This document shows positions 2,791 through 47,562 of a stretch of DNA of 64,000 bases, in pieces. A program made the position numbers and the translations under genes. Below the pieces are notes generated by a model, which saw nothing but the letters and a program-made list of their open reading frames with translations, did not search any database and had not been told where the DNA came from. The DNA is taken from positions 1 through 64,000 of IMG/VR virus record IMGVR_UViG_3300014911_000002. The stretch is one strand, 5' to 3'. Each line of letters starts with the position of its first letter. Position 1 is the first letter of the stretch. The DNA is from a virus.

Positions 2791-5700
2791 ATGCCTAGTC
2801 TTGGGGAAATTTCTGTAAGAATTGTCCTCGACTTCCGAGGAATTACTGCACAGCTTAAACAATTTCGTAAATTACTCCAGACTGGGTTACAGCAAATCTC
2901 TAAAGAAATCTCCACTGGTTTTAAACCTCTTGGAGTAGCTCCTAAAGAATTTCAAAAAGCCTTTCAGAATATTGCTAAGACGGCTGCGAAACAAAGTCAG
3001 AAGACAGCTGCTATTGTTGGGAAAGGCGGAAGGAGAATAGGCAAGGCATTTGAAGAGGCTGCTCAGCCTATTTATCTTGGCTTCCCACGTGCAATGGATA
3101 CTATGCATCGACAGGTTTCTCGCTCTCTCTTTTCGGTTTTAAGGGATATGCTATCGTTCAGAAACATGATTACGAAAATAGTTCACTATATTACATTCAC
3201 CATCGGTGTGCAGATGGTCATGGGAATAGTTCGTGGTATAGGTCAGGTTACTGAGTCAACAAAGGAATTTCAACGTGCCATAGTAAACGCAGCTACTATC
3301 TCAGGATATCTTGGCGGTGCATTCGAAAAGGTTACTGCACACCTAGAAAAACTTGCTTTAGAACTTTCTAAGGAAACTGTCTTTTCGGCAGTAGATGTGG
3401 CCAAAGCATTTTATCAAATTGCATCAGCTGGTTACGACGTTTCGAAATTAACCAAACGCGAGCTCATACCAATATTGAATTATGCTGCGGCTACTCAAAG
3501 CACGCTTGAAGATGCCACTTATGCAGTATTAACCGCACTAAAAGCATTCAGACTAGATATCTCTGAAACTTCACACGTAGTTGACGTCTTCACTGCAGCT
3601 ATAACTAAATCATTCCAGAATTTCGATAGGCTTAGAGAAGGGATGAAATACGTAGGCGCAACTGCTGGCTCTCTAAATCTTTCAATAGAGGAAACAGTCG
3701 CAGCGTTATCAGCCTTGGTTGATCGTGGATTGGAAGGCTCGCAGGCAGGACAAAGACTCAATATGATACTCACAAGATTATTGAAGCCAACGGACCAGGC
3801 TGCAGAGACCCTGGAGCAGCTAGGTTTGACAGCGGATGATGTGAATCCCAAATACTATGATTTGGTTGAAATCTTATATAAATTGAAGGCTGCTGGTTTT
3901 GGTGCAGCAGAAGCATCCGCAATGTTCAGAGCTAGAACCGCAGCATCTGCTGTAGTGTTAGTACAGTCTGCTGATGACATCGCTCGTTTTACCGCGATGC
4001 TAGAACGTTCACAAGGCATAACCGAAACCGTTGCGGAATATCAAGAACGAACTCTATGGGGTGCACTAACTAAGGTTTCAAATGCTCTTCAAGCAGCATC
4101 GATTACTCTCGGCAAATCCTTGATTCCTGTCTTCGAATGGGCTGCTGGTGTAATCAAAGCTAAAGTTGTTCCTATGATTGAATCGGTGGCAAATGCATTC
4201 AAGTACTGGAAAGGCACAATATTCCCTGCCATCAAACTTCTTATTTCAATGCTTATCGGCTATAAAGCTGCGATGTTTGCGGTTTCAATCATGAGCAAAT
4301 ATGTCACAGGATTACAAATACTACAAGCAACAGCAATGACGAAAAATGCTCAAATAACGCTTCAAGCTGCTTTAGCACAACGTCTGTATGCTGAAGCTCA
4401 ACGCGAATTGGCAATAATGACTGGTCAAGCTACAGCTGCACAACTTGCCTTAAATGCAGCAATGTTGGCCAATCCCATCACTCTTCTCCTCATAGCTATT
4501 GGCTCTCTCGTATCTTATATGGTATTATTCGGGAGTGAAACGAAAAAGGCAAAGGACCCGCTTGAGGATCTTAACACATCTATGCTTGATGCAATTAGGT
4601 TTACCGAAGATTGGCAAAATACCATTAAAGATTTTGCTAAGGCTAATTATTCTGACGTATTTAAGAAAGAGGAGGATGCTATATCAGGATTCCTCCAAAG
4701 AATAGGTTTAAAGCATAAAGGAACAGCAGAGTTGGCCAGAAGGCTCTGGCGTGATATGGCAAAAGATCCCGAAGCCTATGCGGATGTGATAGAAGAGATT
4801 GCAAAAAGAACTGGATATTCCGTTGAAGAGATAAGGCAAGCATTAGCGGGTAAGACGACATTGCCAACATCAGTTTGGGGAAAGGGCGCAATTGAACAGG
4901 CAAGGCAGTTTTCCAAAGAGGTGAAAATAGCTCAAGATAGCATAGGAGCATTAGAAGATATGTTTACGACTACCCTTAGAGGCGTTTCAACTTCTTTTGC
5001 CCAAATTTCAGGAGAACTTTTAGCATTTCAGAATTCTATCCAGGAAATAACAGATGCTACAGAAGAATTTAGAGAAGCTGAAAACGAGTTAAACAGGACT
5101 TTGGCAGAATCCCCAGATAATCTGCGTGCCATAAAAGACGCAACCGAACGGTATGTAAACGCTCAATCCAAATTAGATCTAGTCTCAAAGAGGTTTTTAT
5201 CATCGCTCAAGGATTTGGTTCAGTCAATTCGTGAACTTCCAGGTCCTTACGATGAGGTCGTAGGTATTATGGAAGATATGGCAGATGCTATGCATAGCGC
5301 ATTTATTGCCGAGAAAGACCTTGCAGCAGCCGCAAGAGAAGAAGAAGAAGCGTTATCAAATCTTGCCAATACTCTTGCTTTATACGGTGCACAATCTTCA
5401 GAAGCAAGAAATGCCGAATATAAGTTGTTTGCAGCTATGAAGCAAAGAATGCAACTCGAAGACGAATTGGCATCTGCAACAAAAGACTATGAGGCTGCAC
5501 AACGAAAGCTTAATTTCATTATGGAACACGGTATAGAAGTTCAAACAGAATCTGGAACAACGACCATAAAACTAACATCAGTTCAGAAAGATCTTTTGGA
5601 TATGACAGAAAAACTAATACGATTAAGGGAACAATATATTCGTGCAGAGGCCGAATATATTGAACTTCAGGCTAAACAAAACGCATACCAATATCTTCTT

Positions 5701-8112
5701 GAGAAAGGAAGTAGGATATTAGCTGAGAAGAGTAAGATTTTGTTCGAGGCAAGGAAAAAACTTTATGATATAGAATATAAGCTTTACAAATTAAGAGTCG
5801 ATGAGGATGAACAACTAGGAGACCTCTTTAAGAAACTGGCAAAAGAGGGTTTCATAAATCAAAGCGTGGTCGATACTTACAAGGACATGATGTTGGCTAA
5901 AGGCGAACTCCTTAAACTTCATCCAAAGCTTGCAGCTATTTATGGGCGATTGAATGAAGAACAGAAAGAGCTCGTTGAGAATTATATTAAAACAGGTAAG
6001 GGTTTAGAGAGGCTTACATTCCTCACTGATGATGAGATAAATACAGTTGTAGCATTCAGAAATGCACAGCTTAGATTTTCTTCTGCAACTGAAGATCTTC
6101 GAAATGTTCTCACTCCTTTGATTGGTGATCTCATAGACATAGGTGCTGTATCCTCCGATGTTGCAAAATCCTATTTCGATCTTATAGACAATACGGGTGA
6201 GATAATCACATATAATCTTGAGTTACTTAAAATCAATGATGATCTCTCCCAGAGCATTGGTGATATAATTGGTGTGGTTGCCAGATTAGCTAGAGCATTA
6301 CAGGATGAGGCTGATGAAACCGATAGTGTCGCAGATGTCTATGATGAATTAGTTAAACAGCTTGGTCTTTCCAAGGAATTCGGTGACGATTATGGTGGCA
6401 TCTTAAAGACCCTCAACAAACTATACGGTACATCATATCGCTCGATTTCAGACTTCTCTGATGCTCAGTTATTAGTTGCTGCCGCATTAGTTAAAGTGGC
6501 CAAGAATGCCGGAATATACGAACGTGGTATGACCGCTGCAGAGATTGCAACTAGATTGCATATCTCTTCCCTTAACGAACTCACAGATGCAGCGCAATAT
6601 GCGTATGACAGTGAAGATTCTATGTATTCCATCACCACTAAACTCCAAGAAGCAGCAAATACTCTTAGCGGGACCTTCTCTGAGATGAATAAAACACTCA
6701 ATGAATTGGTTAACACCTATTATCGGTCTAATAAAGATCTTTTGCAATTTGCTCTTACTTGGGATTTTGCAGACACGCTTATGAATCGATTTGGCGGAAA
6801 TTTCGAAGAATTGGTTGCCACCATGCGAGCACAGGATCTTTCATTCACCATAGATATGATGACAAAATGGGATGGTAAGGATTGGGACGCATTTATTACT
6901 TCATTAAGCGGTGATAGAAGAGATGCGTTTTTCAAAGCCGTTGCTATGATGTCTGGTACATCAGTAGATATAGTCTCTAAATGGGATGGCGATGACTGGA
7001 AGGACTTTATTTCAGGTCTATCCTCAGATAAGATGAAGGCCATTTCATCTATCTTAACCTCAGAAGACTTGAATTTCAATATCGAAGCATTGCTGCAGGG
7101 AGTGCCACTTGCAGAACGAGTTAGGACGCTTCCGGATGATTTGAAAAACGAATTAAAACAAAGATTATCAACTTTGACCGATATCCCAGCTATCAATATT
7201 GATGCTCTGCTTCAAGGCGAAGCTGATTGGGCTAAGGGCATAAAGCCAGAACAGGTTCAAAAAGTCCAGCGGTTTTTAGACTCTCTTCCTGTAGATGAGA
7301 GAAGCCTTAATATTAAACCTACTATAGATACCACTAAAAGCACCGAAAAATCTTTGTGGGACGCAATATGCGATCTATTTTCTGGTATAGGAGCAACCTT
7401 CAAAAGGGGCATAGGTTGGGTAATAGATGTTATTGTGAACACAGTTACAGGCGGAGGCGGCGGTAGAGGCGGAGGTGGTGGAAGAGGTGGACGAGGAGGT
7501 GGAGGAGGGGAAAAACCACCACCTCCACCGCCGCCAAAACCAGAGGATAAAGGGAAGGTCGCTGGCATCTGGATAGAATGGAAAGATACTGATAAGCGAA
7601 CTGCAACTGGTCAAAAAATTTATGAAGCGACTTTTATAGCAAAATCCACAACTGGTTTATCCCATATCATAGGCAAGGCTGTCGGCACTACCGACGAGGT
7701 ACATAAAATTCACCAGGAACTTATAGGAAAATATGTCAACAAACCGTGGCCATGGGCATTCGGTGGTATCGCCGGACTTGCAATGAAAGCAGCCTCATTT
7801 AAACGTAGTGCGATAGTCAAAGGACCAGTGAATGCTTTAATTGGTGAAGCTGGACCAGAAGCTGTTATACCACTTGCAGGAAGATATAGAAGATATGGTG
7901 AGAAACTTCTTAGAGCAATCATCCCACGATATTTCCCAGACTTGCGAATGCAATATGGAAGCGTAGTTGAACGGCCTTTACCCGAGCGCATCACCACGAA
8001 TAGAGAAGAATTTATCATCAGAGGACCAATAATTATTGAGCACGTTGCAAGTCTAGAAGATTTTGTAAGTCAGCTAAAGTTTAGAGCCAGAGCTGCCGCT
8101 CCCACATCATGA
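2791..8112 (+). CDS. Tail tape measure protein (TP901-like core)
   Basis: 1773 aa, Ala/Leu-rich and helical; FSAVDVAKAFYQIASAG, GMKYVGATA, EETVAALSALVDRGLEGSQAGQRL, ANPITLL and C-terminal GEAGPEAVIPL motifs. Confidence 0.95.
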   Translation: MPSLGEISVRIVLDFRGITAQLKQFRKLLQTGLQQISKEISTGFKPLGVAPKEFQKAFQNIAKTAAKQSQKTAAIVGKGGRRIGKAFEEAAQPIYLGFPRAMDTMHRQVSRSLFSVLRDMLSFRNMITKIVHYITFTIGVQMVMGIVRGIGQVTESTKEFQRAIVNAATISGYLGGAFEKVTAHLEKLALELSKETVFSAVDVAKAFYQIASAGYDVSKLTKRELIPILNYAAATQSTLEDATYAVLTALKAFRLDISETSHVVDVFTAAITKSFQNFDRLREGMKYVGATAGSLNLSIEETVAALSALVDRGLEGSQAGQRLNMILTRLLKPTDQAAETLEQLGLTADDVNPKYYDLVEILYKLKAAGFGAAEASAMFRARTAASAVVLVQSADDIARFTAMLERSQGITETVAEYQERTLWGALTKVSNALQAASITLGKSLIPVFEWAAGVIKAKVVPMIESVANAFKYWKGTIFPAIKLLISMLIGYKAAMFAVSIMSKYVTGLQILQATAMTKNAQITLQAALAQRLYAEAQRELAIMTGQATAAQLALNAAMLANPITLLLIAIGSLVSYMVLFGSETKKAKDPLEDLNTSMLDAIRFTEDWQNTIKDFAKANYSDVFKKEEDAISGFLQRIGLKHKGTAELARRLWRDMAKDPEAYADVIEEIAKRTGYSVEEIRQALAGKTTLPTSVWGKGAIEQARQFSKEVKIAQDSIGALEDMFTTTLRGVSTSFAQISGELLAFQNSIQEITDATEEFREAENELNRTLAESPDNLRAIKDATERYVNAQSKLDLVSKRFLSSLKDLVQSIRELPGPYDEVVGIMEDMADAMHSAFIAEKDLAAAAREEEEALSNLANTLALYGAQSSEARNAEYKLFAAMKQRMQLEDELASATKDYEAAQRKLNFIMEHGIEVQTESGTTTIKLTSVQKDLLDMTEKLIRLREQYIRAEAEYIELQAKQNAYQYLLEKGSRILAEKSKILFEARKKLYDIEYKLYKLRVDEDEQLGDLFKKLAKEGFINQSVVDTYKDMMLAKGELLKLHPKLAAIYGRLNEEQKELVENYIKTGKGLERLTFLTDDEINTVVAFRNAQLRFSSATEDLRNVLTPLIGDLIDIGAVSSDVAKSYFDLIDNTGEIITYNLELLKINDDLSQSIGDIIGVVARLARALQDEADETDSVADVYDELVKQLGLSKEFGDDYGGILKTLNKLYGTSYRSISDFSDAQLLVAAALVKVAKNAGIYERGMTAAEIATRLHISSLNELTDAAQYAYDSEDSMYSITTKLQEAANTLSGTFSEMNKTLNELVNTYYRSNKDLLQFALTWDFADTLMNRFGGNFEELVATMRAQDLSFTIDMMTKWDGKDWDAFITSLSGDRRDAFFKAVAMMSGTSVDIVSKWDGDDWKDFISGLSSDKMKAISSILTSEDLNFNIEALLQGVPLAERVRTLPDDLKNELKQRLSTLTDIPAINIDALLQGEADWAKGIKPEQVQKVQRFLDSLPVDERSLNIKPTIDTTKSTEKSLWDAICDLFSGIGATFKRGIGWVIDVIVNTVTGGGGGRGGGGGRGGRGGGGGEKPPPPPPPKPEDKGKVAGIWIEWKDTDKRTATGQKIYEATFIAKSTTGLSHIIGKAVGTTDEVHKIHQELIGKYVNKPWPWAFGGIAGLAMKAASFKRSAIVKGPVNALIGEAGPEAVIPLAGRYRRYGEKLLRAIIPRYFPDLRMQYGSVVERPLPERITTNREEFIIRGPIIIEHVASLEDFVSQLKFRARAAAPTS

Positions 8113-9566
8113 CGTCATTTTCAATTGTTTTCAATCCAGGTGAAGAAAACGAACTTACCATTTCCTCTGGAGATAATCTAGAATCTCTCACTATAAACCA
8201 TTCCAACGAGAGCTACTATAAAGATGCAGAAGTCGCGCTTTATAACATACCAGATTTTGAGGAGAAGGTATCTATAAATTCGCGAGTCAATATTTATATA
8301 GATGGGCATCTAGAATTCTCTGGATATGTTTCAAGAATACAGACAAGAATTAGCGGAGTAAAGATCTTCTATCTTCAATGTATTGGACGTACATACGATC
8401 TCTGGCGATTCATGATATCTGGCGACACTTATTTCGAAAAAAAATATTCAGCTTATATAGTTTCATCTCTTGTCGCCCAATATTGTTCCGGGCATGGAAT
8501 CTATATAACACCACCGGATGTCAGGGAAACGGATGGAAGCTATATTGAATACATTGATGTTTCCTTGATGGCCGTTGGGGATGCGATAGCACGCATAGCA
8601 AAATTCGATGGTCATCATTTCTTTGTTGATGAATATGGAAAACTTAGATATTATACCGTATCATCCTCTGTTCAATTTACCGTAACAACATCAGACATTC
8701 TTGAAATGGAACCCCTAGAGCATTCAGATGATTATATTAGAAATGACGTCTTAGTGGTTGGTTCTCAACAATACGAACAAATTATTCCTGATCAACTCCC
8801 ACCCTTTACATCTGGGAATTGGATTTGGATATCATCAGCAACAACATTCGTTGCACAGCAATTTGGAGTGCCCGCACTAGAAACCAATAGATTAACCTCA
8901 TTAAAACTCCGTGCTACGAGAAGCAAAGGCAAGAATACTCCACTGTATCTTGCGGGAGATATCCGAAATGATAATTCCGGAGAACCTGGATCCATAGTTG
9001 CATCCTCCAATACTATAACCTGGCATGGTGTCGATATTCAGGCTGACCCTTCTGGTACTTGGCTTCCATTCTATACATTTTCCAATCATCTATATCTTTC
9101 AGGAGGCGCAGCATATTGGGCAGTATTCCACTTCCCCGGTGCTAGCTCAAACATTTGGTGGAAACTTTCATATTCTCCTCTTCCGGACTATACAGATGTG
9201 CTTTCATCAGAACCAACATTATATGGAACTTGGGATTATGGAAGTATCGATTACGGTGATGTGGTCTATGATTCTGGGAATAATGAAGTAGATTTTGTTG
9301 CTAAACCAAGAGGATATGCATCAGCCAATACGTTCTTACAAGACATCACACCACGAACTCGTTATTTCTACCTTCCATCATCCTTATTTACTGATGAAAT
9401 TAATTTCCTTGCCAAAGTACGGATAGACAAATATGAAAGCGGGAATAAAGGCCTTGGGAATTACAGGCGCACCGATGATGGTAGATATAGACCAAGATTT
9501 ATGATCGGTTTATGTGATATGTCCCATCCAGCAAAACCAATGTTTGGATTTGAATTCGATCTATAG
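8109..9566 (+). CDS. Baseplate hub/tail protein, N-terminal half
   Basis: Directly after the TMP (ATGA overlap). FSGYVSRI, IARIAKFDGHHFFVDEYGKLRY and IRNDVLVVG hub motifs, followed by an incomplete beta-sandwich insert. Confidence 0.8.
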   Translation: MTSFSIVFNPGEENELTISSGDNLESLTINHSNESYYKDAEVALYNIPDFEEKVSINSRVNIYIDGHLEFSGYVSRIQTRISGVKIFYLQCIGRTYDLWRFMISGDTYFEKKYSAYIVSSLVAQYCSGHGIYITPPDVRETDGSYIEYIDVSLMAVGDAIARIAKFDGHHFFVDEYGKLRYYTVSSSVQFTVTTSDILEMEPLEHSDDYIRNDVLVVGSQQYEQIIPDQLPPFTSGNWIWISSATTFVAQQFGVPALETNRLTSLKLRATRSKGKNTPLYLAGDIRNDNSGEPGSIVASSNTITWHGVDIQADPSGTWLPFYTFSNHLYLSGGAAYWAVFHFPGASSNIWWKLSYSPLPDYTDVLSSEPTLYGTWDYGSIDYGDVVYDSGNNEVDFVAKPRGYASANTFLQDITPRTRYFYLPSSLFTDEINFLAKVRIDKYESGNKGLGNYRRTDDGRYRPRFMIGLCDMSHPAKPMFGFEFDL

Positions 9567-9574
9567 GTGAAATT

Positions 9575-9781
9575 ATGGCGAGAGGGATTGAGCATAGAGA
9601 TGTTGGAGATCAGCTTTCAAAGACTGAATGGCTTGAAGGTGCTCACTACTTTATGAGCGGTACATCTTTTCCCGCTTCTCCAGCTGAAGGTGATGTATTT
9701 TATAAAACGGATGAGCATGTGTTGTATATTTATGATGGAACTTCCTGGAAGCCACTTGGTCCCACTGCTGTATATGGCTAA
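9575..9781 (+). CDS. Small tail-fibre-motif protein
   Basis: GGTGA RBS; SGTSFPASPAEGDVFYKTDEHVLYIYDGTSW matches the common phage fibre motif P-x-x-P-x-x-GD-x-[WF]...Y-x-Y-x-G-x-x-W. Confidence 0.7.
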   Translation: MARGIEHRDVGDQLSKTEWLEGAHYFMSGTSFPASPAEGDVFYKTDEHVLYIYDGTSWKPLGPTAVYG

Positions 9782-9791
9782 TTGAGAGAAT

Positions 9792-10271
9792 ATGGGATAT
9801 TCTTGGACTCCTATAAATAAAGGGGATCTTATAAAAGCTGCACACTTCAACGAAATCAAAGATAATCTCGAAGACCTCTATGATGAATTGCAATTGGATT
9901 CTCCATCCTGGACGTACTTTCCAGTTAGTGTTGGTCAGATTATCAAGAAAGACCATATTCAGGAATTAAGAGATAAGACCGATTATGCCGATGATATGAA
10001 TTACTGTCGTGCTCACGATGGCACTTACAACAATAGTATCGATTCTGGCTATAAATACAGCGTTGATTCCGGCGACAACTACAGTTATAAGGGAAGCTAT
10101 AATAGCGGTGTTGATAGCTCCTACAACTCAGCTGTTCATACAAATAATAATGACACAGTCGATTTAGATGAGTATTCTACGGTATATAACGGAAATGAAG
10201 CCTACGTATTGCTTGTAAACAAAAATCCCTACGATTCCGATACGTGGTCACCCTATTATAATGGCAATTAG
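9792..10271 (+). CDS. Repeat protein A, putative radical SAM substrate
   Basis: Two WTxxxxGxxIKxxHxxEL/IxD motifs, then a Cys and a 4/8-periodic Y/S/D/N/G-rich tract. Confidence 0.75.
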   Translation: MGYSWTPINKGDLIKAAHFNEIKDNLEDLYDELQLDSPSWTYFPVSVGQIIKKDHIQELRDKTDYADDMNYCRAHDGTYNNSIDSGYKYSVDSGDNYSYKGSYNSGVDSSYNSAVHTNNNDTVDLDEYSTVYNGNEAYVLLVNKNPYDSDTWSPYYNGN

Positions 10272-10279
10272 GTGATAGT

Positions 10280-10648
10280 ATGGCTTTTACCTGGACGCCA
10301 ATAGATGTTGGCGATGTTATTAAGAAAGCTCATGTTATCGAACTTCGCGACAATATAGATTATATTTCTGATAATCTCGCATGCGTTACAGATAAGGATT
10401 CAGTCCATAGCTCTTATGACTCAAGCTATAAATCGGGATATAACACAACAGTTGATAATTACGATAAAGGAACCTATAAGAGTGATCACAAAACTGGTAA
10501 CTACTGGGGTCATGAAGCCACTATATATTCAAACAATGATATAAATGAATATGGAACCCATGATGAATCCGCACTGTCCGCACCTGATAAAGGAACCTAC
10601 AACGGAGGTTATTATGTCGACTGCTCGGGATATAATTCACCAGTTTAG
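10280..10648 (+). CDS. Repeat protein B, paralog of A, putative radical SAM substrate
   Basis: GGTGA RBS; WTPIDVGDVIKKAHVIELRDNID, then a Cys and a 4-periodic tract. Confidence 0.75.
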   Translation: MAFTWTPIDVGDVIKKAHVIELRDNIDYISDNLACVTDKDSVHSSYDSSYKSGYNTTVDNYDKGTYKSDHKTGNYWGHEATIYSNNDINEYGTHDESALSAPDKGTYNGGYYVDCSGYNSPV

Positions 10649-11942
10649 AGAAATTCAAGCACTTGAGTTGTTCACATCTGCATTATGTCCGCTCAATTGT
10701 AGGTACTGCTATATTCCTAAATGTTCTGCAATGGCGAACATACATAACGACATAATTCAGAATACCTTAACAAATGAACAAACTAGAATCGTAAAAGAAA
10801 AATTTCCAAATTTAAGAACGATATCGTTATGGGGTGCAGAACCTACAGTATCATTAGAGAATTTACTGCCAAAATTGAAAAAATTTGCAGAATCTATAAA
10901 TAAGCTAGATTCGATCACTTTTTCCACAAATTTTGTAAATATAAAACCTATTAAACACCTATTGAAGGTATTCGAAGATATAGATATAGAATTAAAAATT
11001 CAAATATCTCTTGATGGGCCAGACTTTATCACCGATTATAATCGTGCACCAGGTCTAACTAAGCGAATTCTTGAAAACATTGACGAGCTCATTGATTTTG
11101 CAAAACAATTGGAATTCAAGAGAAAACCATTAATTCATTTTAAATCAACAATCACTACTGAAAATATGCGATATATGTTAAATAGAAATCTAATAGAGGA
11201 ATATTTTTCATTTTGGGATGAGTTGTTTTCATCAATAAAAGAGAAAGAATCCAATATGGCATTTATTCTCAAATGCTATCCAACACTTGAGGTTCCTGGA
11301 CGATATACAAAATTAGACGGTGAGACGTTTGCTAATTTCCTCAAACAAGTACATAGTATTGGCCAACATTCCGACTACACCTTTAGACTAATTCGACTTG
11401 TTCAATTTAGTAAGAACCTATATGCAAGACACCATGAATTCACCTGTTCAGCAATGGATTCGAATTTAGGCCTAGATGGGCTTACAGTCCATCCATGCCA
11501 CAGGACATTTTTCCTAGATCGTCAAGAATACTTAGATGCAATACTTAGGATGGATGCATATCAAAATTGGGATGTCTCACTTCTTGATAAAGGACTTATT
11601 GACGCAGCCAACAAAAACTTTGTGGTCCCAATAAAAGATAACGATTTTTCACGGTTTGCCTACCTTGGTCGAGCCTATCATGATTTCTTTCGATTTCGTG
11701 TATCTATTACTTCAGCGATCATTCACGAAATGGCACTCGCTGGAGAAGTCGGCAAATACTATTTAAGATTACCTGAGCTAAGGGAACTATTGAGTATATT
11801 TCTTCATGCAGCAGTCGGATGCCCAGTCGAATCGATATTGAATTCAGGCTCTATCCATCTTCCAATCCTTTCTTTGATTAGACTATTTGGAAATGGAGCT
11901 TTTATCGAGGTGATTAAAGATGCGGTTAATACCCTTGGATGA
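10614..11942 (+). CDS. Radical SAM enzyme with partial SPASM/twitch domain
   Basis: CPLNCRYC, WGAEP, ISLDGP, TCSA...HPCHR; GGAGGT RBS precedes the ATG at 10614. Confidence 0.9.
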   Translation: MSTARDIIHQFREIQALELFTSALCPLNCRYCYIPKCSAMANIHNDIIQNTLTNEQTRIVKEKFPNLRTISLWGAEPTVSLENLLPKLKKFAESINKLDSITFSTNFVNIKPIKHLLKVFEDIDIELKIQISLDGPDFITDYNRAPGLTKRILENIDELIDFAKQLEFKRKPLIHFKSTITTENMRYMLNRNLIEEYFSFWDELFSSIKEKESNMAFILKCYPTLEVPGRYTKLDGETFANFLKQVHSIGQHSDYTFRLIRLVQFSKNLYARHHEFTCSAMDSNLGLDGLTVHPCHRTFFLDRQEYLDAILRMDAYQNWDVSLLDKGLIDAANKNFVVPIKDNDFSRFAYLGRAYHDFFRFRVSITSAIIHEMALAGEVGKYYLRLPELRELLSIFLHAAVGCPVESILNSGSIHLPILSLIRLFGNGAFIEVIKDAVNTLG

Positions 11943-13227
11943 TGATGCAAAAGTTCTTGTTAATTTTCTAAATCGCACATTTCTTTCAGGATTTAAACAT
12001 CCTGAAAAAATGCCAAATTATAGCACAATAGAGCTTATAATAGACCCCTATTGCAATTTGGCGTGCAAATATTGTTATCTCAACAAATATGGAAAAGAGC
12101 TGAATCCAAATATTTCGATTTCTTCAATCCAAGAAAACTCGAAGAAGATAATAGATTTCCTTAAGGATTCAGGTTTTAAGGGAAGAATTGAGATATTCGG
12201 AGGAGAACCTCTTATAAAAGACTATGTATTAGATATAATAGAACGGCTTTTAATAGAGACAGACGCTAAGGAAATAGTAGTCCCATCTAATATGACTTTC
12301 CTATTGAATATGCAGAAAGATAAGAGAGTTAGAGAATTAATTGAGTTAGGAAAGGATCTTGGAAGGCCCTTCCTCATATCCTCATCCTGGGACGGAAAAT
12401 TAATGCAGGCGATCAATCGACCATTCAAAGTGAAAAAATCTGTGGATTTTGATGCTTGGGCGGATAAAATTTTTGAATTTGCAACTCACTATAAAATTGG
12501 ATTTCACCCGATGATATATTCAAATAATATAGAACAATGGTTTGATAATTTTTTATGGTTTCAGAAAAAATTCCAAGAGTTCAACATACCATTTAGCAGC
12601 CTTTATCTTTTGGAAGTACGAAACCCTGAATGGACGGTTGAACAAATCAAAGCATTCATGACCTTTATTGATAATGTTGTTAAATGGACATTTCACACGC
12701 CTTGCAAATCGCAAAAGGAAAATTTTCTCGAGTTTTTATTCGAAAAAAGAGGGTATAATTTACTATCCGCACCATTTTCAACGATAGGAAGAGGTATTGG
12801 TTGCTCCATTCAATCTGCACTGCACATTCGAGTTAATGATCTTGCCATAGTGCCATGCCATAGAACGTCTTATGAGCATTTTGTTGCTGGATATCTCAAG
12901 TTTGACGGAAAAAATGTCTATGTCAAATCGAAAAACATAGTCCCATATTTAGCCATACATACGCTTTCTGCAAAAACACTTCCTATGTGCGAACACTGTC
13001 CTCTCAATTCTATGTGTTCATTTGGATGTTTAGGTGCACAGTATGAAACTACAGGCGATTTATTTACGCCTATCCCAACAGTATGTATGCTTGAGCACGG
13101 AAAAGTTTTTCAACTTATCAAGAGCTTTATGGATATTAATGTACTAAACGATATAAAGGCTAGGGTTTCTCCTGATAAAAAATCAGCCATAGATTTATTT
13201 GAGGGGTATTATGAACGAGGTGTTTGA
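11920..13227 (+). CDS. Radical SAM/SPASM peptide-maturase-like enzyme
   Basis: CNLACKYC, FGGEP, GCSI...VPCHR, CEHCPLNSMCSFGCLG...PTVC. Confidence 0.92.
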   Translation: MRLIPLDDDAKVLVNFLNRTFLSGFKHPEKMPNYSTIELIIDPYCNLACKYCYLNKYGKELNPNISISSIQENSKKIIDFLKDSGFKGRIEIFGGEPLIKDYVLDIIERLLIETDAKEIVVPSNMTFLLNMQKDKRVRELIELGKDLGRPFLISSSWDGKLMQAINRPFKVKKSVDFDAWADKIFEFATHYKIGFHPMIYSNNIEQWFDNFLWFQKKFQEFNIPFSSLYLLEVRNPEWTVEQIKAFMTFIDNVVKWTFHTPCKSQKENFLEFLFEKRGYNLLSAPFSTIGRGIGCSIQSALHIRVNDLAIVPCHRTSYEHFVAGYLKFDGKNVYVKSKNIVPYLAIHTLSAKTLPMCEHCPLNSMCSFGCLGAQYETTGDLFTPIPTVCMLEHGKVFQLIKSFMDINVLNDIKARVSPDKKSAIDLFEGYYERGV

Positions 13228-13699
13228 ACGAGTTAAAGGTGAATTAAAAGCTAGAAAATTTATTCCGTTGATACTCTCGAAGGATTTCATCAAAGAACTT
13301 TGGGGGACTGTATCGGATATTGAAAAAGAAATCAGAAAGGCGATTGAAGGAGAGAAGATCGAAAAAGACGATAAGATATATGAGTCAATCAAGAAATTTA
13401 GGGATATTTTTCGGGAGAGAATTGTGAGGGAACCGCTTTCTCCAAATCTTGCTAAATTTATACGAGATGTTCTCACTATATTTTACAATTATCTTTCAGC
13501 AGTCGATGATCAAGAGATGAAGGAAGAAATGTTAATACTAGTAAGATTATTAGATGGTTTTCTAACGTTGAATGAAGCTATAGCGATTTCTAGAGAACTA
13601 ATTGACTATCTCCGCAGGATGATGTACTATTCACCACCATATGTTGAACTTTCCAAGCATTATCTTGAAACGCTCCTTAACGAATGTGAAGAGCCATAG
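13211..13699 (+). CDS. Helical hypothetical protein, last gene of the rSAM cassette
   Basis: GAGGGG RBS; overlaps the rSAM2 stop; no recognised motif. Confidence 0.65.
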   Translation: MNEVFERVKGELKARKFIPLILSKDFIKELWGTVSDIEKEIRKAIEGEKIEKDDKIYESIKKFRDIFRERIVREPLSPNLAKFIRDVLTIFYNYLSAVDDQEMKEEMLILVRLLDGFLTLNEAIAISRELIDYLRRMMYYSPPYVELSKHYLETLLNECEEP

Positions 13700-13709
13700 C
13701 TATTAATTC

Positions 13710-14573
13710 ATGACTGATGGTGGATTTCCTTATACATTTCCATTCTTCTTCGAGGATTCTTTTCAGAAACAAGTGAGAGCATTCGTAATGGTAGATCTAA
13801 CAGAGCATGATACAGCAAAACCCCAGGTCAAATTTGGTGCATGGCAACCAACGGGCTCTAGCACATACAGATGTATGATATCGGGCCTCAAACTTTATTT
13901 TTACATCGATGAAACATTGAAAGACACAATTAACCTTTCAGACCTCACCCTAGATCAGAATATAAAATTTGGACGAGGGTCGCCGCATAATTTCAATACT
14001 CTCGTATTCCGCATGATTGATACAGCGTATTCCTCTCAAGGAGTTGTTGCCTCCTCTGGCGCGTTCCCTTGGATATCCGGTGCCCTATGGGAATATTCAG
14101 TCGAAGATCTTGCTCAGGGTTTGAAAGTTTCCTACGATAGTGGCTCTTCTTGGACTCTACATCCCGATAAAAAACTCGATCTCGTATTAGGTTGGAATTA
14201 TGATTACGTCACAGGACGATATAAGGATTCTGGTTCGATTCAAACTTATGGTCCTCACTTTTATAAAGTAAGTGAACCGCTTATAACCACAAGAGATGAT
14301 GCAAGAACCCTAGCAAGAAGATATGTCGAGACTTACAAAGATGGAATTAAAACAGGTTCGGTGACAATTAAAGGCAAAACAGATATTTCTCTTTCAAATA
14401 AATTCAGGCTTTATCTCCCAGAAGTTGGAATCAATGAGACATTAGTTATAGCATCATATCAGCAACGGATAGATAAGAATGGTTTCACTACAAGAATCAA
14501 TTATGGTACAGTTCCATATGATATTGCAGCTAAAGTTGCACGGCTTGAGCGTAAGATAGAGTCTCAAATATAA
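13710..14573 (+). CDS. Baseplate hub/tail protein, C-terminal half (alternative start 13788)
   Basis: DSGSIQTYG...ITTRDDARTLARRYVETYK...GSVTIKG...GFTTRINYG is a typical hub C-terminus; same reading frame as 8109..9566. Confidence 0.78.
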   Translation: MTDGGFPYTFPFFFEDSFQKQVRAFVMVDLTEHDTAKPQVKFGAWQPTGSSTYRCMISGLKLYFYIDETLKDTINLSDLTLDQNIKFGRGSPHNFNTLVFRMIDTAYSSQGVVASSGAFPWISGALWEYSVEDLAQGLKVSYDSGSSWTLHPDKKLDLVLGWNYDYVTGRYKDSGSIQTYGPHFYKVSEPLITTRDDARTLARRYVETYKDGIKTGSVTIKGKTDISLSNKFRLYLPEVGINETLVIASYQQRIDKNGFTTRINYGTVPYDIAAKVARLERKIESQI

Positions 14574-14675
14574 TGACGTATGAACTATAACGATGGAAAC
14601 GAAAAAAGCTGTATAGGATTAGAAAGTCCAAGAATTTAGGTACTTTGTGGAGGATGTCGGAAATAGGGATTAGAT

Positions 14676-15644
14676 ATGGCCTTGGAGCCTTCATCAGGAT
14701 GGTCTTACTATAAACAAATTGATATTTCTGATGCTGCTAATGTTAGTGCTAACTATCAGATGAGATTAACAGTTTATGCTGGAGAAGGTGAGGATGATAC
14801 CGCTGATGGAATAATTTATTGCGATAATCATTGTGAGAATTTTCCGAATGACATTCGTTTTGGCACTAGAAATGACCCATCCATCGCCACTCAACTTGCT
14901 CAATGGATTGAGGAGAGTGATGCTACGAGTGCAACTATCTGGGTGAAATGCCCAAGTGATGGAAGCGATACATTCTACATGTTCGTTGGGAATTCATCAG
15001 CAAGTCAGTATAGCGATGGTGAAAATACATTTATTTTCTTTGATGATTTTGAAAGCTATGATACAGATAAATGGCAAACAGATGCCGGCTCTCCAGAAAT
15101 ATCTGGCAACACCTGGTTGAGACTTAAGAACGGAGTCAAAGTGAAGACAGTTGATACTTTCGTTCGACCAAAGCGTTTTTTCATGAAAGTGAAGATTAAG
15201 CACATTGAGTCTAACGATGATGATTTCCATCTTATGCTTGCAAACCAATATAGAAATAACAGAGATGATGATATTGATTTTGACTTTGATACAAGCCCAA
15301 TAGCGTTATATCTGATGGTTCATAATGACAATAGTGGAGGTTATAGAAACATAAGTTACACATCAGATACAATATACAAATGCTTCGCAAAATGGAAGAG
15401 CGATGAAGTTAAAATGTATATAGATGGTAAATTAAAATACGCACAATCATCTCCCATTCCCGATGAGGCTTTAAATATTCGACTTGAAGATAGATATGGA
15501 AATGGTGACGAGGCTTATATTGACTATGTAGCAATTTTAAAATATGCATCAACAGAGCCTGCATGGTCATATTTCAGTCCGTGGATAGATATGTCGGAAG
15601 TTCAATCTAATCTACCATTTTTGAATATAGCCTTTAAAAAATGA
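14676..15644 (+). CDS. DUF2341-domain protein with lectin/LamG-like C-terminus (virion)
   Basis: WSYYKQIDI, NYQMRL, FPNDIRF, LAQWIE, ATIWVK, TFIFFDDFE motifs. Confidence 0.8.
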   Translation: MALEPSSGWSYYKQIDISDAANVSANYQMRLTVYAGEGEDDTADGIIYCDNHCENFPNDIRFGTRNDPSIATQLAQWIEESDATSATIWVKCPSDGSDTFYMFVGNSSASQYSDGENTFIFFDDFESYDTDKWQTDAGSPEISGNTWLRLKNGVKVKTVDTFVRPKRFFMKVKIKHIESNDDDFHLMLANQYRNNRDDDIDFDFDTSPIALYLMVHNDNSGGYRNISYTSDTIYKCFAKWKSDEVKMYIDGKLKYAQSSPIPDEALNIRLEDRYGNGDEAYIDYVAILKYASTEPAWSYFSPWIDMSEVQSNLPFLNIAFKK

Positions 15645-15970
15645 ATACTATAGCTTATGGAATGTGCCTGAGATGGGACGAAGAGAACTGGAATGTAATC
15701 CTAGAAGTAGTTATGCGTAGTTCTCATCGGGACGCTCTACTTCAGAACATAACTCCTGGCGCAGTAGCGGAGTTATATAACATCCTTGGAGAGCCTAAGT
15801 ATATCGATACAACTTATAACTCAGGAAATACTCTATGGGTGTATCCATTATCTGGCACAGGTTTATTCGATTTGAGAGAGCCTGTGAAAATAGCCGTTAA
15901 AAATTACTCTGAACACCTTCTTCGGGATGGAACATTTAGGATAAAAATTGAAGGAGTAAAATTAGAATGA
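15641..15970 (+). CDS. Hypothetical tail-region protein, paralog of the next gene
   Basis: ITPGAVAELYNILGEPKYIDTT...VKNYSE...FRIKIEG. Confidence 0.7.
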   Translation: MNTIAYGMCLRWDEENWNVILEVVMRSSHRDALLQNITPGAVAELYNILGEPKYIDTTYNSGNTLWVYPLSGTGLFDLREPVKIAVKNYSEHLLRDGTFRIKIEGVKLE

Positions 15971-16356
15971 CATTTGGACCAAAATTAATAAGAATTTATT
16001 ACTCATCCCTTTCCATTCCACATTATATCGATGCAACCTGCACCCGTTTAGAAATCTCCAACTATTCTGTTATATTCGAAACTATTTTAGATAAAAATCA
16101 AAGGGATAAATTATACAACCATATTACTCCAGGTGCTGTGTCGACTCTCTATCAAATACTCGGAAAACCAGTTTTCTACGATACAACCCTTAGAGGTCTT
16201 AATACTATAATGCTTGCACCTATTGCTGGTACAAGAATCAATGATGCCTACGATAATATCATCTTATATGTGAAAAACTATTCTGAGTTTATCGACCCAG
16301 CAAATAATTTCCATATAAAGATAGAAGGATACATTTCGGGTGAGTTTTATGGTTAA
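15967..16356 (+). CDS. Hypothetical tail-region protein, paralog of the previous gene
   Basis: ITPGAVSTLYQILGKPVFYDTT...VKNYSE...FHIKIEG. Confidence 0.7.
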   Translation: MTFGPKLIRIYYSSLSIPHYIDATCTRLEISNYSVIFETILDKNQRDKLYNHITPGAVSTLYQILGKPVFYDTTLRGLNTIMLAPIAGTRINDAYDNIILYVKNYSEFIDPANNFHIKIEGYISGEFYG

Positions 16357-28762: not shown

Positions 28763-29449
28763 TCACCTGATAATGCATCTCTGAACGTAATATTCTGCAC
28801 GTTTTTTAATCATTTGTAACTCATCGTCTGTGAATTCTCTAATGTTCTTTGCACGTTTCGGATTCAATGCTTTCGTAAATTTAAACCGCTGGAGAGCATA
28901 TAATCTTGCTCCCTCGATATATTTCGCTATCTCCTCGATATCATCCATATCAAGAATTCCTCTGCCGATGGTCGTTCTAAATTCATAATCTAGATTGCTG
29001 TTCATCAACAGCCTTATGCTTTCCTTTATATCATTTATATTTACATCAGCACAAGCGATGTCTCGGTATTTCCCAAATGGACCTTTTATATCCATAGCTA
29101 TGTAATCGACTAAATCCTGTTCGATAAGTTCCTCCAGCATTCTAGGATTAGAACCATTTGTATCAAGTTTGATTAGAAAACCCATCTCCTTGATTTTCTT
29201 CAGGAAAGAAGGGAGATCTTCTTGCAATGTTGGCTCGCCACCTGTTATTACAACACCACTGATTTTCCTACGACGTCTGCCCAAGAAATCTAATATCTCT
29301 TTCTCGGAATAGACACCATCTTTTTGAGCTATAAGTTCTGGATTATGACAATAAAAACAACGGAAATTACATCCCTGAGTGAATATAACCGCTGCAATCT
29401 TCCCTGGATAGTCAATCAGGGAGGTCTTAAGAAGGCCGCCTATTCTCAT
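28763..29449 (-). CDS. nrdG: Anaerobic ribonucleotide reductase activating enzyme
   Basis: SLIDYPG, GCNFRCFYCHNP, TGGEPT, KLDTNG; adjacent to nrdD. Confidence 0.93.
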   Translation of the reverse strand: MRIGGLLKTSLIDYPGKIAAVIFTQGCNFRCFYCHNPELIAQKDGVYSEKEILDFLGRRRRKISGVVITGGEPTLQEDLPSFLKKIKEMGFLIKLDTNGSNPRMLEELIEQDLVDYIAMDIKGPFGKYRDIACADVNINDIKESIRLLMNSNLDYEFRTTIGRGILDMDDIEEIAKYIEGARLYALQRFKFTKALNPKRAKNIREFTDDELQMIKKRAEYYVQRCIIR

Positions 29450-31551
29450 GTTGATATCTTAAACGTCTTTCTCAGCTTAAATTCAGAACGCTTTCCTTTG
29501 TTCCATTGATCAACGGGTCTAAGGTATCCAACGATTCTTGAATAGACCTCACAATGGCTTCCACATTTTGGACACTGTTCATGCTCGCCAGAAATATAGC
29601 CATGATTTGGACAGACACTAAATGTCGGAGTGATCGTGAAATAAGGAAGCCTGTAGTTATAACAAATAGTCTTCACTAAATCCTTTACAACAGAATGATC
29701 AGGTATCTGCTCGCCTATGAAGAGATGAAGAACAGTTCCACCAGTGTATTTAGTCTGAAGTTCATCTTGCAAATCTAATGCCTCGAATATATCATCGGTA
29801 TAATTTACCGGAAGCTGAGTAGAATTAGTATAGAATGGCTCCGCTCCTTTCTGATATTCTTCCTCGTTTGCACAAATTATGTCATCGTAGCGTTTTTTAT
29901 CTAACAATGCAAGCCTATAAGATGTTCCCTCTGCTGGAGTAGCCTCAAGATTATAATTATTGCCAGTCTCTTTTTGATATTCCACTAACCGGTCACGCAT
30001 ATAATCTAGAACTTTAAGAGCAAATGAGCGTCCTTCCTCTGTTGCTATATTGCCTATTCCAAGATTCAAACAAGCTTCGTTCATTCCAATTAAACCGATA
30101 GTCGCAAAATGATTCTTCCAGTATTCATCAAATCTGCTTTTTATATTCCTGAGATAGAATTTAGCATATGGATATAAATTCTTATCTGTTAGACGCTCAA
30201 GAACTTTACGCTTGATTTCGAGGCTTTCCTTCGCCAAATCCATCATCTTTCCCAATTTCTCAAAGAATTCATCTTCATTCTTAGATAAATATCCTAGACG
30301 CGGCATATTTATGGTAACTACTCCGATGCTTCCAGTTAGTGGGTTCGCACCGAATAATCCGCCACCCTTTCGTCTTAGATGCCTAGTATCTAATCTCAAT
30401 CTACAGCACATACTTCGTGCGTCTTCTGGCTTCATATCCGAGTTTATAAAGTTGGCAAAATAAGGAATGCCGTATTTTGCAGTTGCTTTCCAAAGTGGTT
30501 CCAACACCTCATTATCCCAATCGAAATCTCTTGTTATATTATAGGTTGGTATTGGAAAAGTAAATACTCTTCCTTTTGCATCGCCTTCTAACATCACTTC
30601 CATGAATGCCCGATTGAGCATATCCATCTCGTCTTGAAAATCACTATAGACGTCTTTCTGAGGCTCACCGCCAATTATTACCGGAAAATCAGATAAATAA
30701 GATGGAGGCTGAAGATCGAGAGTCAGATTTGTGAAAGGAGATTGAAACCCTACTCGCGTTGGTATGTTAATATTGAACAGGAATTCCTGCATAGCTTGCT
30801 TTACGTCATTATAATTTAGCCCATCATATCTGATGAACGGCGCAAGAAGAGTATCAAAATTAGAGAATGCTTGAGCACCAGCAGCCTCGCCCTGGAGGGT
30901 ATAGAAGAAATTCACAACTTGGCCTATGGCGCTCCGAAAGTGTTTCGCGGGTTTGCTCTCTATTTTACCTTTTGCGCCTTTAAAGCCTACCTGCAGTAAA
31001 TCAAGCAAATCCCAACCAACACAATAAACAGATAGCATTCCCAAATCATGAATGTGGAAATCTCCGGATACGTGAGCATGCCTAATTTCTGATGGATAAA
31101 TTTTATTCAGCCAATAAGTCTTACTCACCTCTGATGATATATAATTGTGTAAGCCCTGCAAAGAATATGTCATATTAGCATTTTCTTGAACTTTCCAATC
31201 CCTGCCTTCAATGTATTCATCCATAATGTTTATGTTCATCTTTTCTGCGATTTCTCGCATCTGTCTGTGCTGATCTCTATAAAGTATGAAAGTTTTTGCA
31301 GTCTCTTTATATCTTGATGAGAGCAAAACTTCCTCTATTATTTCTTGAATCTCTTCAACAGTTGGGACTTTATGTTGAATGGTTTCCTCGGCCAATGACA
31401 AAACCTTTAGCATTAGGCGCCTTGCTATAGATTCCTTTTGGATTTCTCCGCAGCTTTGGCCAGCCTTTAGTATCGCCTCAGTTATCTTTTCGGGTTTAAA
31501 TCGCACTATCCTACCATCGCGCTTTCTTATACTCTTGAACATGGATATCAC
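29446..31551 (-). CDS. nrdD: Class III anaerobic ribonucleoside-triphosphate reductase with ATP cone
   Basis: IRKRDG ATP cone, HIHDL, SMCCRL, NLEATPAE, CPNHGY...CPKC, YSRIVGYLRP glycyl-radical motif. Confidence 0.97.
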   Translation of the reverse strand: MISMFKSIRKRDGRIVRFKPEKITEAILKAGQSCGEIQKESIARRLMLKVLSLAEETIQHKVPTVEEIQEIIEEVLLSSRYKETAKTFILYRDQHRQMREIAEKMNINIMDEYIEGRDWKVQENANMTYSLQGLHNYISSEVSKTYWLNKIYPSEIRHAHVSGDFHIHDLGMLSVYCVGWDLLDLLQVGFKGAKGKIESKPAKHFRSAIGQVVNFFYTLQGEAAGAQAFSNFDTLLAPFIRYDGLNYNDVKQAMQEFLFNINIPTRVGFQSPFTNLTLDLQPPSYLSDFPVIIGGEPQKDVYSDFQDEMDMLNRAFMEVMLEGDAKGRVFTFPIPTYNITRDFDWDNEVLEPLWKATAKYGIPYFANFINSDMKPEDARSMCCRLRLDTRHLRRKGGGLFGANPLTGSIGVVTINMPRLGYLSKNEDEFFEKLGKMMDLAKESLEIKRKVLERLTDKNLYPYAKFYLRNIKSRFDEYWKNHFATIGLIGMNEACLNLGIGNIATEEGRSFALKVLDYMRDRLVEYQKETGNNYNLEATPAEGTSYRLALLDKKRYDDIICANEEEYQKGAEPFYTNSTQLPVNYTDDIFEALDLQDELQTKYTGGTVLHLFIGEQIPDHSVVKDLVKTICYNYRLPYFTITPTFSVCPNHGYISGEHEQCPKCGSHCEVYSRIVGYLRPVDQWNKGKRSEFKLRKTFKIST

Positions 31552-46506: not shown

Positions 46507-47562
46507 TTATTCATCGACAAACCCCAAATCCAAAGCCAATCTAACTGGATATTTTGCCCAATCTGTTTTCACATCTGGTCTTCGTACAAGCTGAACTCGC
46601 CTTGCTTCATCACCGAATTTTTCTTTGGCTTTTTTATCTGGCGGAAGAATTTGCAAAATATATTTCGAATGATAGATTATGGCATCTCCACCGTATGGTC
46701 TCCCCAAGTCCCGCATGTTTGTTGGGTCTATCGACACATGATGAGTTATTACTGTGCATAGATTATATACCTTTGAGAGCTTTAGAAGTCTCCCATAAAT
46801 TCTGTTGACTATTGAAGACCTTGCTGGTAGATTGAAGGTTTCATGTCCTATGCTTTCTTTCAAAGGAGTGGTCAAAGAATCTATTGCGAGGAAAGTTGCA
46901 TTTTCCAATTGTTTCCTAATGGGCATATCCTTCATTGGAAAGAATCTTACGGAATATTTCCCAGCCTTTTCAGAAAGTTCAAGTTGAACGTTATATCCGA
47001 AGAGTTTACACAATGCTTCAAGGGATTCCATAACTGGGTCATCCATCGTAGATATAAATATAAAGTGCTTTTTTATATCTTCATCCGAAACCTCATAGCG
47101 TTTTGCCAATTTATATGCTATTGACATAATATCTTTTCGCCTATTGCCTTCGGTATCGATGTATATAGAGTCCATGCCAGTCTTTTTGATATTTGCAACT
47201 GCAAGCATAACTGATAACCAAGTCTTACCAACCGATGGTAGCCCAGTGATTGCCGTTGGTATGCCGTAAGGGAAGCCACCACCCATAAGCTCATCTATGG
47301 TAAGGCAACCTGTACGCAAATTTTCTAACTTATCACGCATATTTTTCAACCTCTCAAAATCAATATTGTTGAGAGCAAACATAATGTGCTTACATGCAGA
47401 CTTTTTAAATGTAAAGTATGGACATGAACACCAAGCATCTGCATATTCTCCATCAATGGAAACAACATACTCACGTCCAGAATCTGATTTTATAAGCAGG
47501 ACTGCTATACCATTCAGACCATAAACTTTTTCCAGAATTTTCATAATATCGAATATTATCAC
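46507..47562 (-). CDS. SWIM Zn finger fused to a RadA/RadB-like ATPase
   Basis: CSCPYF...CKH; TGCLTIDELMGGG, GLPSVGKT, YIDTEG, IDS, PYGGDAIIYHSKY. Confidence 0.85.
   Translation of the reverse strand: MIIFDIMKILEKVYGLNGIAVLLIKSDSGREYVVSIDGEYADAWCSCPYFTFKKSACKHIMFALNNIDFERLKNMRDKLENLRTGCLTIDELMGGGFPYGIPTAITGLPSVGKTWLSVMLAVANIKKTGMDSIYIDTEGNRRKDIMSIAYKLAKRYEVSDEDIKKHFIFISTMDDPVMESLEALCKLFGYNVQLELSEKAGKYSVRFFPMKDMPIRKQLENATFLAIDSLTTPLKESIGHETFNLPARSSIVNRIYGRLLKLSKVYNLCTVITHHVSIDPTNMRDLGRPYGGDAIIYHSKYILQILPPDKKAKEKFGDEARRVQLVRRPDVKTDWAKYPVRLALDLGFVDE

Follow-up and report, generated by a model that had tools for sequence, protein, structure and literature searches.

The tail hub of the virus analyzed here is probably made from two polypeptides, encoded on either side of a cassette of six genes. 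The window, meaning the whole stretch of DNA that was analyzed, comprises 64,000 nucleotides (nt; positions 1 to 64,000) of the IMG/VR record IMGVR_UViG_3300014911_000002, a virus record of 89,379 bp that has direct terminal repeats; the virus is uncultured, and its likely source is a sediment metagenome. Two of its open reading frames (ORFs), at 8109-9566 and 13710-14573 and referred to here as the N-half and the C-half, are supported by sequence comparison as the N-terminal and the C-terminal part of a single tail hub of the YqbQ/XkdQ type. We consider it quite probable that a single old fission divided this hub, and that its two parts are translated separately and reassemble non-covalently, with nothing excised or spliced.

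A search with the N-half yielded relatives of 480-485 amino acids (aa) that end at the same ...F-G-x-E-F-D-L (identity 74% for P0002 and 48% for P0003), together with 387-388-aa forms (P0004-P0006) and two long proteins. Both halves align, in order, to single longer homologs. In the 930-aa protein P0018, residues 4-485 of the N-half correspond to 6-491 and residues 10-283 of the C-half to 653-927, and P0014, P0010 and P0013 are tiled by both halves in the same way. The N-half is matched to its last residue in all four (to residue 491 of P0018, 488 of P0014, 845 of P0010 and 679 of P0013), while the C-half is matched from its residues 10-22 on (from 653, 664, 1132 and 778, respectively). Pairwise alignments show that the V-R-x-F motif of the C-half is conserved in the unsplit homologs. 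A first-pass annotation of this DNA, made without database searches, had proposed that the two ORFs are halves of one hub, and the tiling supports this.

A HMMER search with the C-half gave 101 family representatives, which were sorted by iterated profiles (jackhmmer) of six segments of the hub. A hub N part of at least 170 aa and a hub C part were found on one chain in 63 of the 101 representatives; the two parts meet directly (20 aa or fewer between them) in 11 of these, and the other 52 carry inserts of 310-1070 aa. The remaining representatives have a partial N part (15/101) or a hub C part only (22/101), and in one (1/101) the hub C part was not detected. The minimal hubs connect the family to the Pfam profile PF24032 (YQBQ). 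In P0008 (770 aa), residues 27-304 cover positions 7-291 of the 294 in the profile, residues 61-205 align with N-half 70-218, and residues 202-322 align with C-half 158-281 directly after. Scores against a cut-off of 27 bits were 28.5 for P0008, 31.9 for P0072 and 34.1 for P0066; among the minimal hubs scanned against this profile, 7 of 10 matched at E<=0.01, two of them over the cut-off. Both the N and the C parts of the profile are thus present and collinear, and in the window they are split over two genes.

Profiles of six segments place the halves in a nested layout that reads hubN, A1, B1, break, leader, B2, A2, hubC (Table 1). The core of the hub consists of N-half 1-219 and C-half 167-287, and about 430 residues of insert lie between them. 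The A1-like part of P0024 (query 241-370) joins directly to a region matching C-half 129-285, so B is an insert placed after A1; the 387-388-aa forms P0004-P0006 end at the A1/B1 boundary. The break between B1 and B2 is therefore at the innermost point of the nested layout. Eight proteins carry B1 and B2 on one chain (P0010, P0011, P0012, P0013, P0014, P0016, P0017 and P0018), and all eight have 94-296 variable residues, here called domain X, between B1 and B2. The variable domain at the break site of P0014 (504-647) is a second copy of an A1-type domain, which points to hub inserts being built by nested reuse of one domain type. A weak BNR match on P0011 falls at the motif equivalent to the Asp-box-like motif of A2.

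Judging from these alignments, the true ends at the break are L485 and roughly V22. The C-half starts at ATG 13710 and not at 13788, and its leader contains residues F6, P7, Y8, T9, F10, P11, F12, F14 and F18 that are invariant in the four C-halves of the split clade; overall identity among these C-halves is 52-60%. Few parts of the two halves are as well conserved as the chain ends at the break.

The same arrangement was found in related viruses. The N-half, the six genes and the C-half are complete in the window and in the contigs L001 (=L020), L002 (=L022) and L021, and L024 and L025 show the N-half and the cassette up to the contig ends. Every contig in which an N-half of the 485-aa type is followed by downstream DNA continues into the cassette (6/6, the window included); L003/L026, L023 and L029 end too early to show it. 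The N-halves at loci with the split layout are 41-48% identical to that of the window. Since related viruses keep the layout down to 41% identity, the split is old and not a recent or removable insertion. Unsplit hubs without the cassette are encoded in L004, L007, L008 and L009 (single chains of 801-1236 aa), and a minimal hub in L027.

The split clade forms one branch (91 in the Shimodaira-Hasegawa-like approximate likelihood ratio test, SH-aLRT) within a 17-row group of all B-containing hubs (89) in a tree of the hub N part, which was built from 74 rows by a quick search and rooted at the midpoint. The copies of the second radical S-adenosylmethionine (SAM) gene of the cassette (rSAM2) that are linked to hubs likewise make up a single clade (93/94) that is nested within copies from cassettes in other settings, as expected if the hub gene captured the module once. 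These trees show a single origin of the split. A second split form is represented by P0004-P0006 (387-388 aa) together with P0011 and P0012 (698 and 719 aa): its N pieces stop exactly at the A1/B1 boundary and its C pieces begin exactly at B1. The 387-aa forms group with the unsplit P0010 (94) in the hub N tree, apart from the clade of the window, and this points to a second, separate fission. A scan of viral contigs with P0011 gave no match.

Both halves are under strong purifying selection. Comparison of L001 with L002 gives a ratio of nonsynonymous to synonymous substitution rates (dN/dS) of 0.04 for the N-half; the three cassette genes compared, s68 (encoding the 68-aa protein), rSAM1 and rSAM2, have ratios of 0.02-0.04, and for the C-half dN is 0.093 with dS saturated. 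The 89-kb record with terminal repeats holds this single hub C copy and no other. The first-pass annotation had suggested that the hub may work as two chains, and the absence of another hub C copy together with selection on both halves makes this the best reading, with the two chains presumed to assemble.

Six protein genes take up the approximately 4.1 kb that separates the halves (Table 1). The 68-aa product of the first, s68, is 81-85% identical in L001, L002, L021, L024 and L025, and gene 2 (159 aa) had no Pfam or NCBIfam match. Genes 4 and 5 encode the radical SAM pair (rSAM1 and rSAM2). The ORF of gene 4 overlaps gene 3 by about 100 nt (10545-10648), and its true start is probably an internal Met downstream, because homologs align only from residue ~35. 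Gene 5 covers positions 2-328 of the 330 in the PapB family NF047865 at a score far below the cut-off, and all NCBIfam matches of the two enzymes to twitch/SPASM and PapB-type maturases are below their cut-offs. The stop of gene 6 overlaps the start of the C-half (ATGA) in L001 and L002. No integrase, transposase, homing endonuclease or recombinase family was matched in the six genes in Pfam, PHROGs or NCBIfam.

Table 1. Features of the split hub, the cassette and adjacent tail genes; positions are those of the window.
Feature	Position	Strand	Description	Basis
Tape measure protein	2791..8112	+	1773 aa	size, position, homologs; no family match
N-half	8109..9566	+	485 aa; ends ...FGFEFDL, then TAG	
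hubN core	8109..8765	+	N-half residues 1-219	aligns to minimal hubs 4-213, which run directly into the hub C part
A1	8766..9278	+	first part of inserted domain A; N-half 220-390	jackhmmer domain map
B1	9279..9566	+	first segment of inner insert B; N-half 391-485; TAG at 9564-9566	unsplit homologs align to the last residue
Gene 1 (s68)	9575..9781	+	68-aa fibre-motif protein	weak matches to tail-fibre PHROGs and DUF2793
Gene 2	9792..10271	+	159 aa; conserved N-terminal motif, Tyr/Ser/Asp/Asn-rich tail	candidate radical SAM substrate
Gene 3	10280..10648	+	122-aa paralog of gene 2, also Tyr/Ser/Asp/Asn-rich	34% over 96 aa
Gene 4 (rSAM1)	10545..11942	+	radical SAM peptide-maturase-like enzyme; 465-aa ORF	PF04055 28.5 bits (cut-off 29.5), phrog_1802
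Gene 5 (rSAM2)	11920..13227	+	radical SAM/SPASM-type peptide-maturase-like enzyme; 435 aa	PF04055 37.2 bits, Fer4_12
Gene 6	13199..13699	+	166 aa; conserved last cassette gene	homologs in L001, L002, L021 and L025, also after the radical SAM pair in L010 and L014
C-half	13710..14573	+	287 aa	
Leader	13710..13772	+	C-half 1-21	invariant residues in split clade
B2	13773..14093	+	second segment of inner insert B; C-half 22-128	alignments to P0018, P0014, P0010 and P0013
A2	14094..14207	+	end of domain A with Asp-box-like SxDxGxxW motif; C-half 129-166	jackhmmer map
hubC core and stop	14208..14573	+	C-half 167-287	weak PF24032 match; 39.5% identity to P0008 202-322
DUF2341 protein	14676-15644	+		

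Cassettes of this kind are also present in viruses where they lie outside hub genes, so the DNA between the halves is modular. When viral contigs were scanned with rSAM2, both enzymes turned up together in L010, L011, L013, L014, L015 and L018, with distant versions in L016, L017 and L019; homologs of the two repeat-rich proteins, which have an N-terminal motif in common, were detected in L010, L011, L014, L015 and L018, and tblastn found homologs of the 166-aa protein in L010 and L014. No hub halves were found within 10 kb of these other cassettes (among them L010 7391-12716, L011 7911-11856, L013 6700-11890 and L014 7771-11878). In L010, L011, L013 and L014 the cassette ends the tail genes, after ORFs for fn3, BppA-CBM-like or LamG proteins. 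The first-pass annotation had described a module without integrase or transposase that had inserted into the hub gene. The module part stands, the cassette being self-contained, devoid of matches to such families and present elsewhere; the idea of a recent insertion does not agree with a layout that is old and fixed in the clade. The s68 motif is also found in long C-terminal extensions of minimal single-chain hubs (P0066 803-835, P0095 501-523, P0033 428-465 and P0037 493-523), indicating that such fibre pieces are covalently joined to hubs in relatives. This fusion-type evidence is a hint that the structural proteins of the cassette may belong at the hub.

The same first-pass annotation had regarded the ~4.2 kb between the halves as an inserted module with a possible GATCTA target-site duplication, whose excision might restore a 742-aa hub as a host-range switch. 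What it saw is correct throughout: GATCTA lies at 9558-9563 and 13794-13799, an ATG at 13788 and CAGCAAAACC at 9529 and 13813, the two ORFs share a frame in the window, as both start at a coordinate divisible by 3, and joining them at GATCTA gives 742 aa (485 + 257). Repeats near both ends, a common frame and a cassette known from other genomic contexts all favor a recently inserted, mobile element of this kind. The repeats are, however, at chance level. Random zone pairs of equal size from the window share a word of at least 10 nt in 4% (120 x 210 nt) to 9% (200 x 290 nt) of about 3000 trials, and a word of at least 6 nt is common to nearly all such pairs. GATCTA and CAGCAAAACC stand in opposite order at the two ends, so that they are not collinear. 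They precede the stop by 3-38 nt on one side, and on the other they follow the true start of the C-half by 84-103 nt. A GATCTA at each end is found in neither L001 nor L002, where the longest words shared between the ends are unrelated 9-mers; the N-half ends with TTTGACTTGTAA and TTTGATTTGTAA in relatives from sequencing runs X1 and X3, which also lack the repeats. Direct repeats lying exactly at both ends of the insert and conserved among its carriers were not found. Joining at FEFDL-TEHDTAKP, as proposed, would cost the C-half its residues 1-30, of which 14 are invariant in the four split-clade C-halves (F6-F12, F14, F18 and V22-V26). The shared frame is itself not conserved, being present in the window and L001 and different in L002 and L021. 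The stop after B1 is TAG in the window, TGA in L001 and TAA in L002 and in the relatives from X1 and X3, and because it varies in this way it is a real stop and not a recoded codon. No contig skips the cassette, though rare excised forms would be invisible in contigs. With the absence of matched mobility families and the fixation of the layout at 41-48% identity, we regard a recent excisable element as very unlikely. Rejoining of the products after synthesis, by a split intein or at the RNA level by an intron or ribosomal bypass, has equally little to recommend it: beyond the split itself, the strongly conserved leader of the C-half is the one feature in its favor. Unsplit homologs match the N-half as far as its last residue, which leaves no extension of the size of an N-intein, and the leader gives just ~21 residues before homology resumes. 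Intein junctions carry a His-Asn motif followed by Cys, Ser or Thr, and none was noticed by eye at the leader of the C-half. No Rfam family, introns included, was matched in 8000-15000, and the 4.1 kb between the halves consists of six protein genes under purifying selection. A switch by excision or splicing, as had been suggested, thus finds no excised contig, no Rfam intron, no room for a split intein and no recombinase.

One could also suppose that the two pieces no longer act together, one half having been repurposed or become dispensable while hub function is supplied otherwise. Proteins with the hub C part only do occur in the family (the 22 representatives mentioned above), so free-standing pieces may exist. 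The PF24032 profile, however, needs both parts, as its coverage over 7-291 in single-chain homologs illustrates, the genome has no other hub C copy, both halves are present wherever a contig of the clade is long enough to show them, purifying selection acts on each of them, and the chain ends at the break are conserved as described. Separate roles are in our view improbable, if less so than excision or rejoining. An assembly chimera, with the cassette wrongly placed in the hub gene, had to be considered for a window that comes from a metagenome assembly, and can practically be dismissed. An independent Logan contig of 8686 nt from run X1, probably the source sample, bridges both junctions (8800-13977) without differences, a contig of ~89% identity from another study covers 10313-14540 including the junction of cassette and C-half, and the layout recurs in the five further contigs L001, L002, L021, L024 and L025. 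A second record of run X1 (window 9574-9860) represents a second relative, at a depth of 9 versus 51, whose N-half ends in the same way and is followed by s68.

Several points weigh against a hub made of two chains by one old fission, or limit how far that account reaches. The assignment as a hub is by transitive homology, because PF24032 recognizes neither half on its own at the cut-off of 27 bits, the C-half reaching 12.7 bits and the N-half giving no match. The C-half match, residues 172-261 to profile positions 200-289 of 294, is the sole lead from Pfam, PHROGs and NCBIfam, which gave no significant match on either half. PDB sequences gave nothing significant against profiles of both halves, the best relevant row being a pyocin R2 protein at E = 0.97. 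The share of unsplit hubs is approximate, as some of the 22 representatives with the hub C part only may be gene fragments (e.g. P0015). The trees rely on the midpoint or on one long outgroup branch for their root, and in the rSAM1 tree a single cassette clade is weakly backed (75/71). Alignment of C-half and N-half profiles with the LamG protein that precedes the cassette in L013 (hhalign) showed no relation; that B1 and B2 may form a ConA/LamG-like sandwich is a guess from sequence patterns. The break may fall within a single domain or separate two domains. As to the order of events, the fission may have come first, the cassette may have come first, or both may have arisen in one event. A tblastn search of 50,697 phage records with the C-half gave no match. 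The Atlas model of the C-half has a predicted local distance difference test (pLDDT) value of 0.46, and its Atlas neighbors (Prophage_tail, GpP_4th and YQBQ) are leads only, at values below 0.9 and with template modeling (TM) scores below 0.5 by query. We take YqbQ/XkdQ-like hubs to be related to gp27, Mu GpP and P2 gpD, for which the Atlas likewise offers leads only.

The account we favor, a hub of two chains, would run as follows. The ancestor would have had a single-chain nested hub with the variable domain X between B1 and B2, and X would have been replaced by a stop codon, the six-gene module and a restart with the conserved 21-residue leader. This fission occurred once, in the ancestor of a clade whose members now share about 41-48% identity in the N-half, and has been kept since. 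The two chains would be translated separately from one closely packed operon and would rejoin without a covalent link, held together by the hub core and by their conserved ends at the break; we infer this physical reassembly from the genes. That arrival of the cassette caused the fission is our inference too, and the function of the lost X may have been taken over by cassette products. One tentative possibility is that the fission was adaptive. Domain X, probably a receptor-binding domain, would then have been exchanged for separate fibre-like proteins that are modified or cross-linked by the radical SAM enzymes and dock at the chain ends at the break, with the split hub acting as a socket for an exchangeable receptor-binding module.

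The gene order around the hub agrees with its assignment. The plus-strand genes from 2791 to 15644 are closely packed and operon-like in the ORF list, and an ATGA at 8109 combines the start of the hub gene with the stop of the tape measure gene. Long tape-measure homologs lie immediately 5' of the hub gene in L001, L002, L004 and L007-L009, and the hub gene is directly downstream of the tape measure gene in the window, L001, L002, L004, L007-L009, L021 and L027. In every relative, split or unsplit, the hub or DUF2341 genes are followed by two or three genes for paralogous proteins of ~110-130 aa (window 15641-16356; L004 13384-14141; also L007, L008, L009 and L027).

Outside the cassette and on the opposite strand, the window encodes a third radical SAM/SPASM protein (PF04055 and PF13186; 24686-25651, minus strand). 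An anaerobic ribonucleotide reductase (NrdD with ATP-cone) is encoded at 29446-31551 and a Rad51-like recombinase with a SWIM finger at 46507-47562, both on the minus strand. The presence of these two genes suggests that the host may be anaerobic and possibly archaeal. A scan of genome contigs by alignment of the C-half found no provirus.

The split genes known from phages mostly encode enzymes and are interrupted by homing endonuclease genes. As far as one account of T4-like phages describes them, such genes in pieces include nrdA of Aeromonas phage Aeh1 with mobE, the T4 topoisomerase gene with mobA, and the split gene 43 of phages 25 and 44RR; split polypeptides of Aeh1 NrdA and of gene 43 have been shown to work, and their pieces reassemble (PMC2988022). 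The hub described here, for which these are the closest precedent, resembles the cases covered in that account in being contiguous in relatives and divided by inserted DNA that provides a stop and a restart. Unlike those cases, the insert is a six-gene cargo of 4.1 kb, with fibre-like and radical SAM proteins and no homing endonuclease gene, and the split gene encodes a structural protein of the virion, with the break at a site of domain insertion and reassembly of the chains presumed. Like PF24032 hubs, it lies directly after the tape measure gene, and single-chain homologs link its halves to the N and C parts of the profile; unlike them, it occupies two genes, contains ~430 residues of nested inserts and has no half that reaches the cut-off. 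No published hub split by a cassette was found in literature searches on radical SAM and tail fibre, baseplate hub and YqbQ/XkdQ, which left supplements outside their scope.

A core virion protein thus appears to be stably encoded in two pieces around a six-gene cargo and to have survived divergence to about 41% identity in this state. Since neither half reaches the family cut-off alone, such viruses would seem to have no hub in annotation. The hub tolerates a break at the tip of its inserted domains, which marks this position as a domain-exchange hot spot. The fibre cassette with its radical SAM enzymes is tied to the hub physically and in evolution, and the hub is thereby a place to look for the substrates of these enzymes in the virion. 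If cassette proteins do dock at the break, this would represent a new architecture for receptor-binding modules and a new way to build a tail tip.

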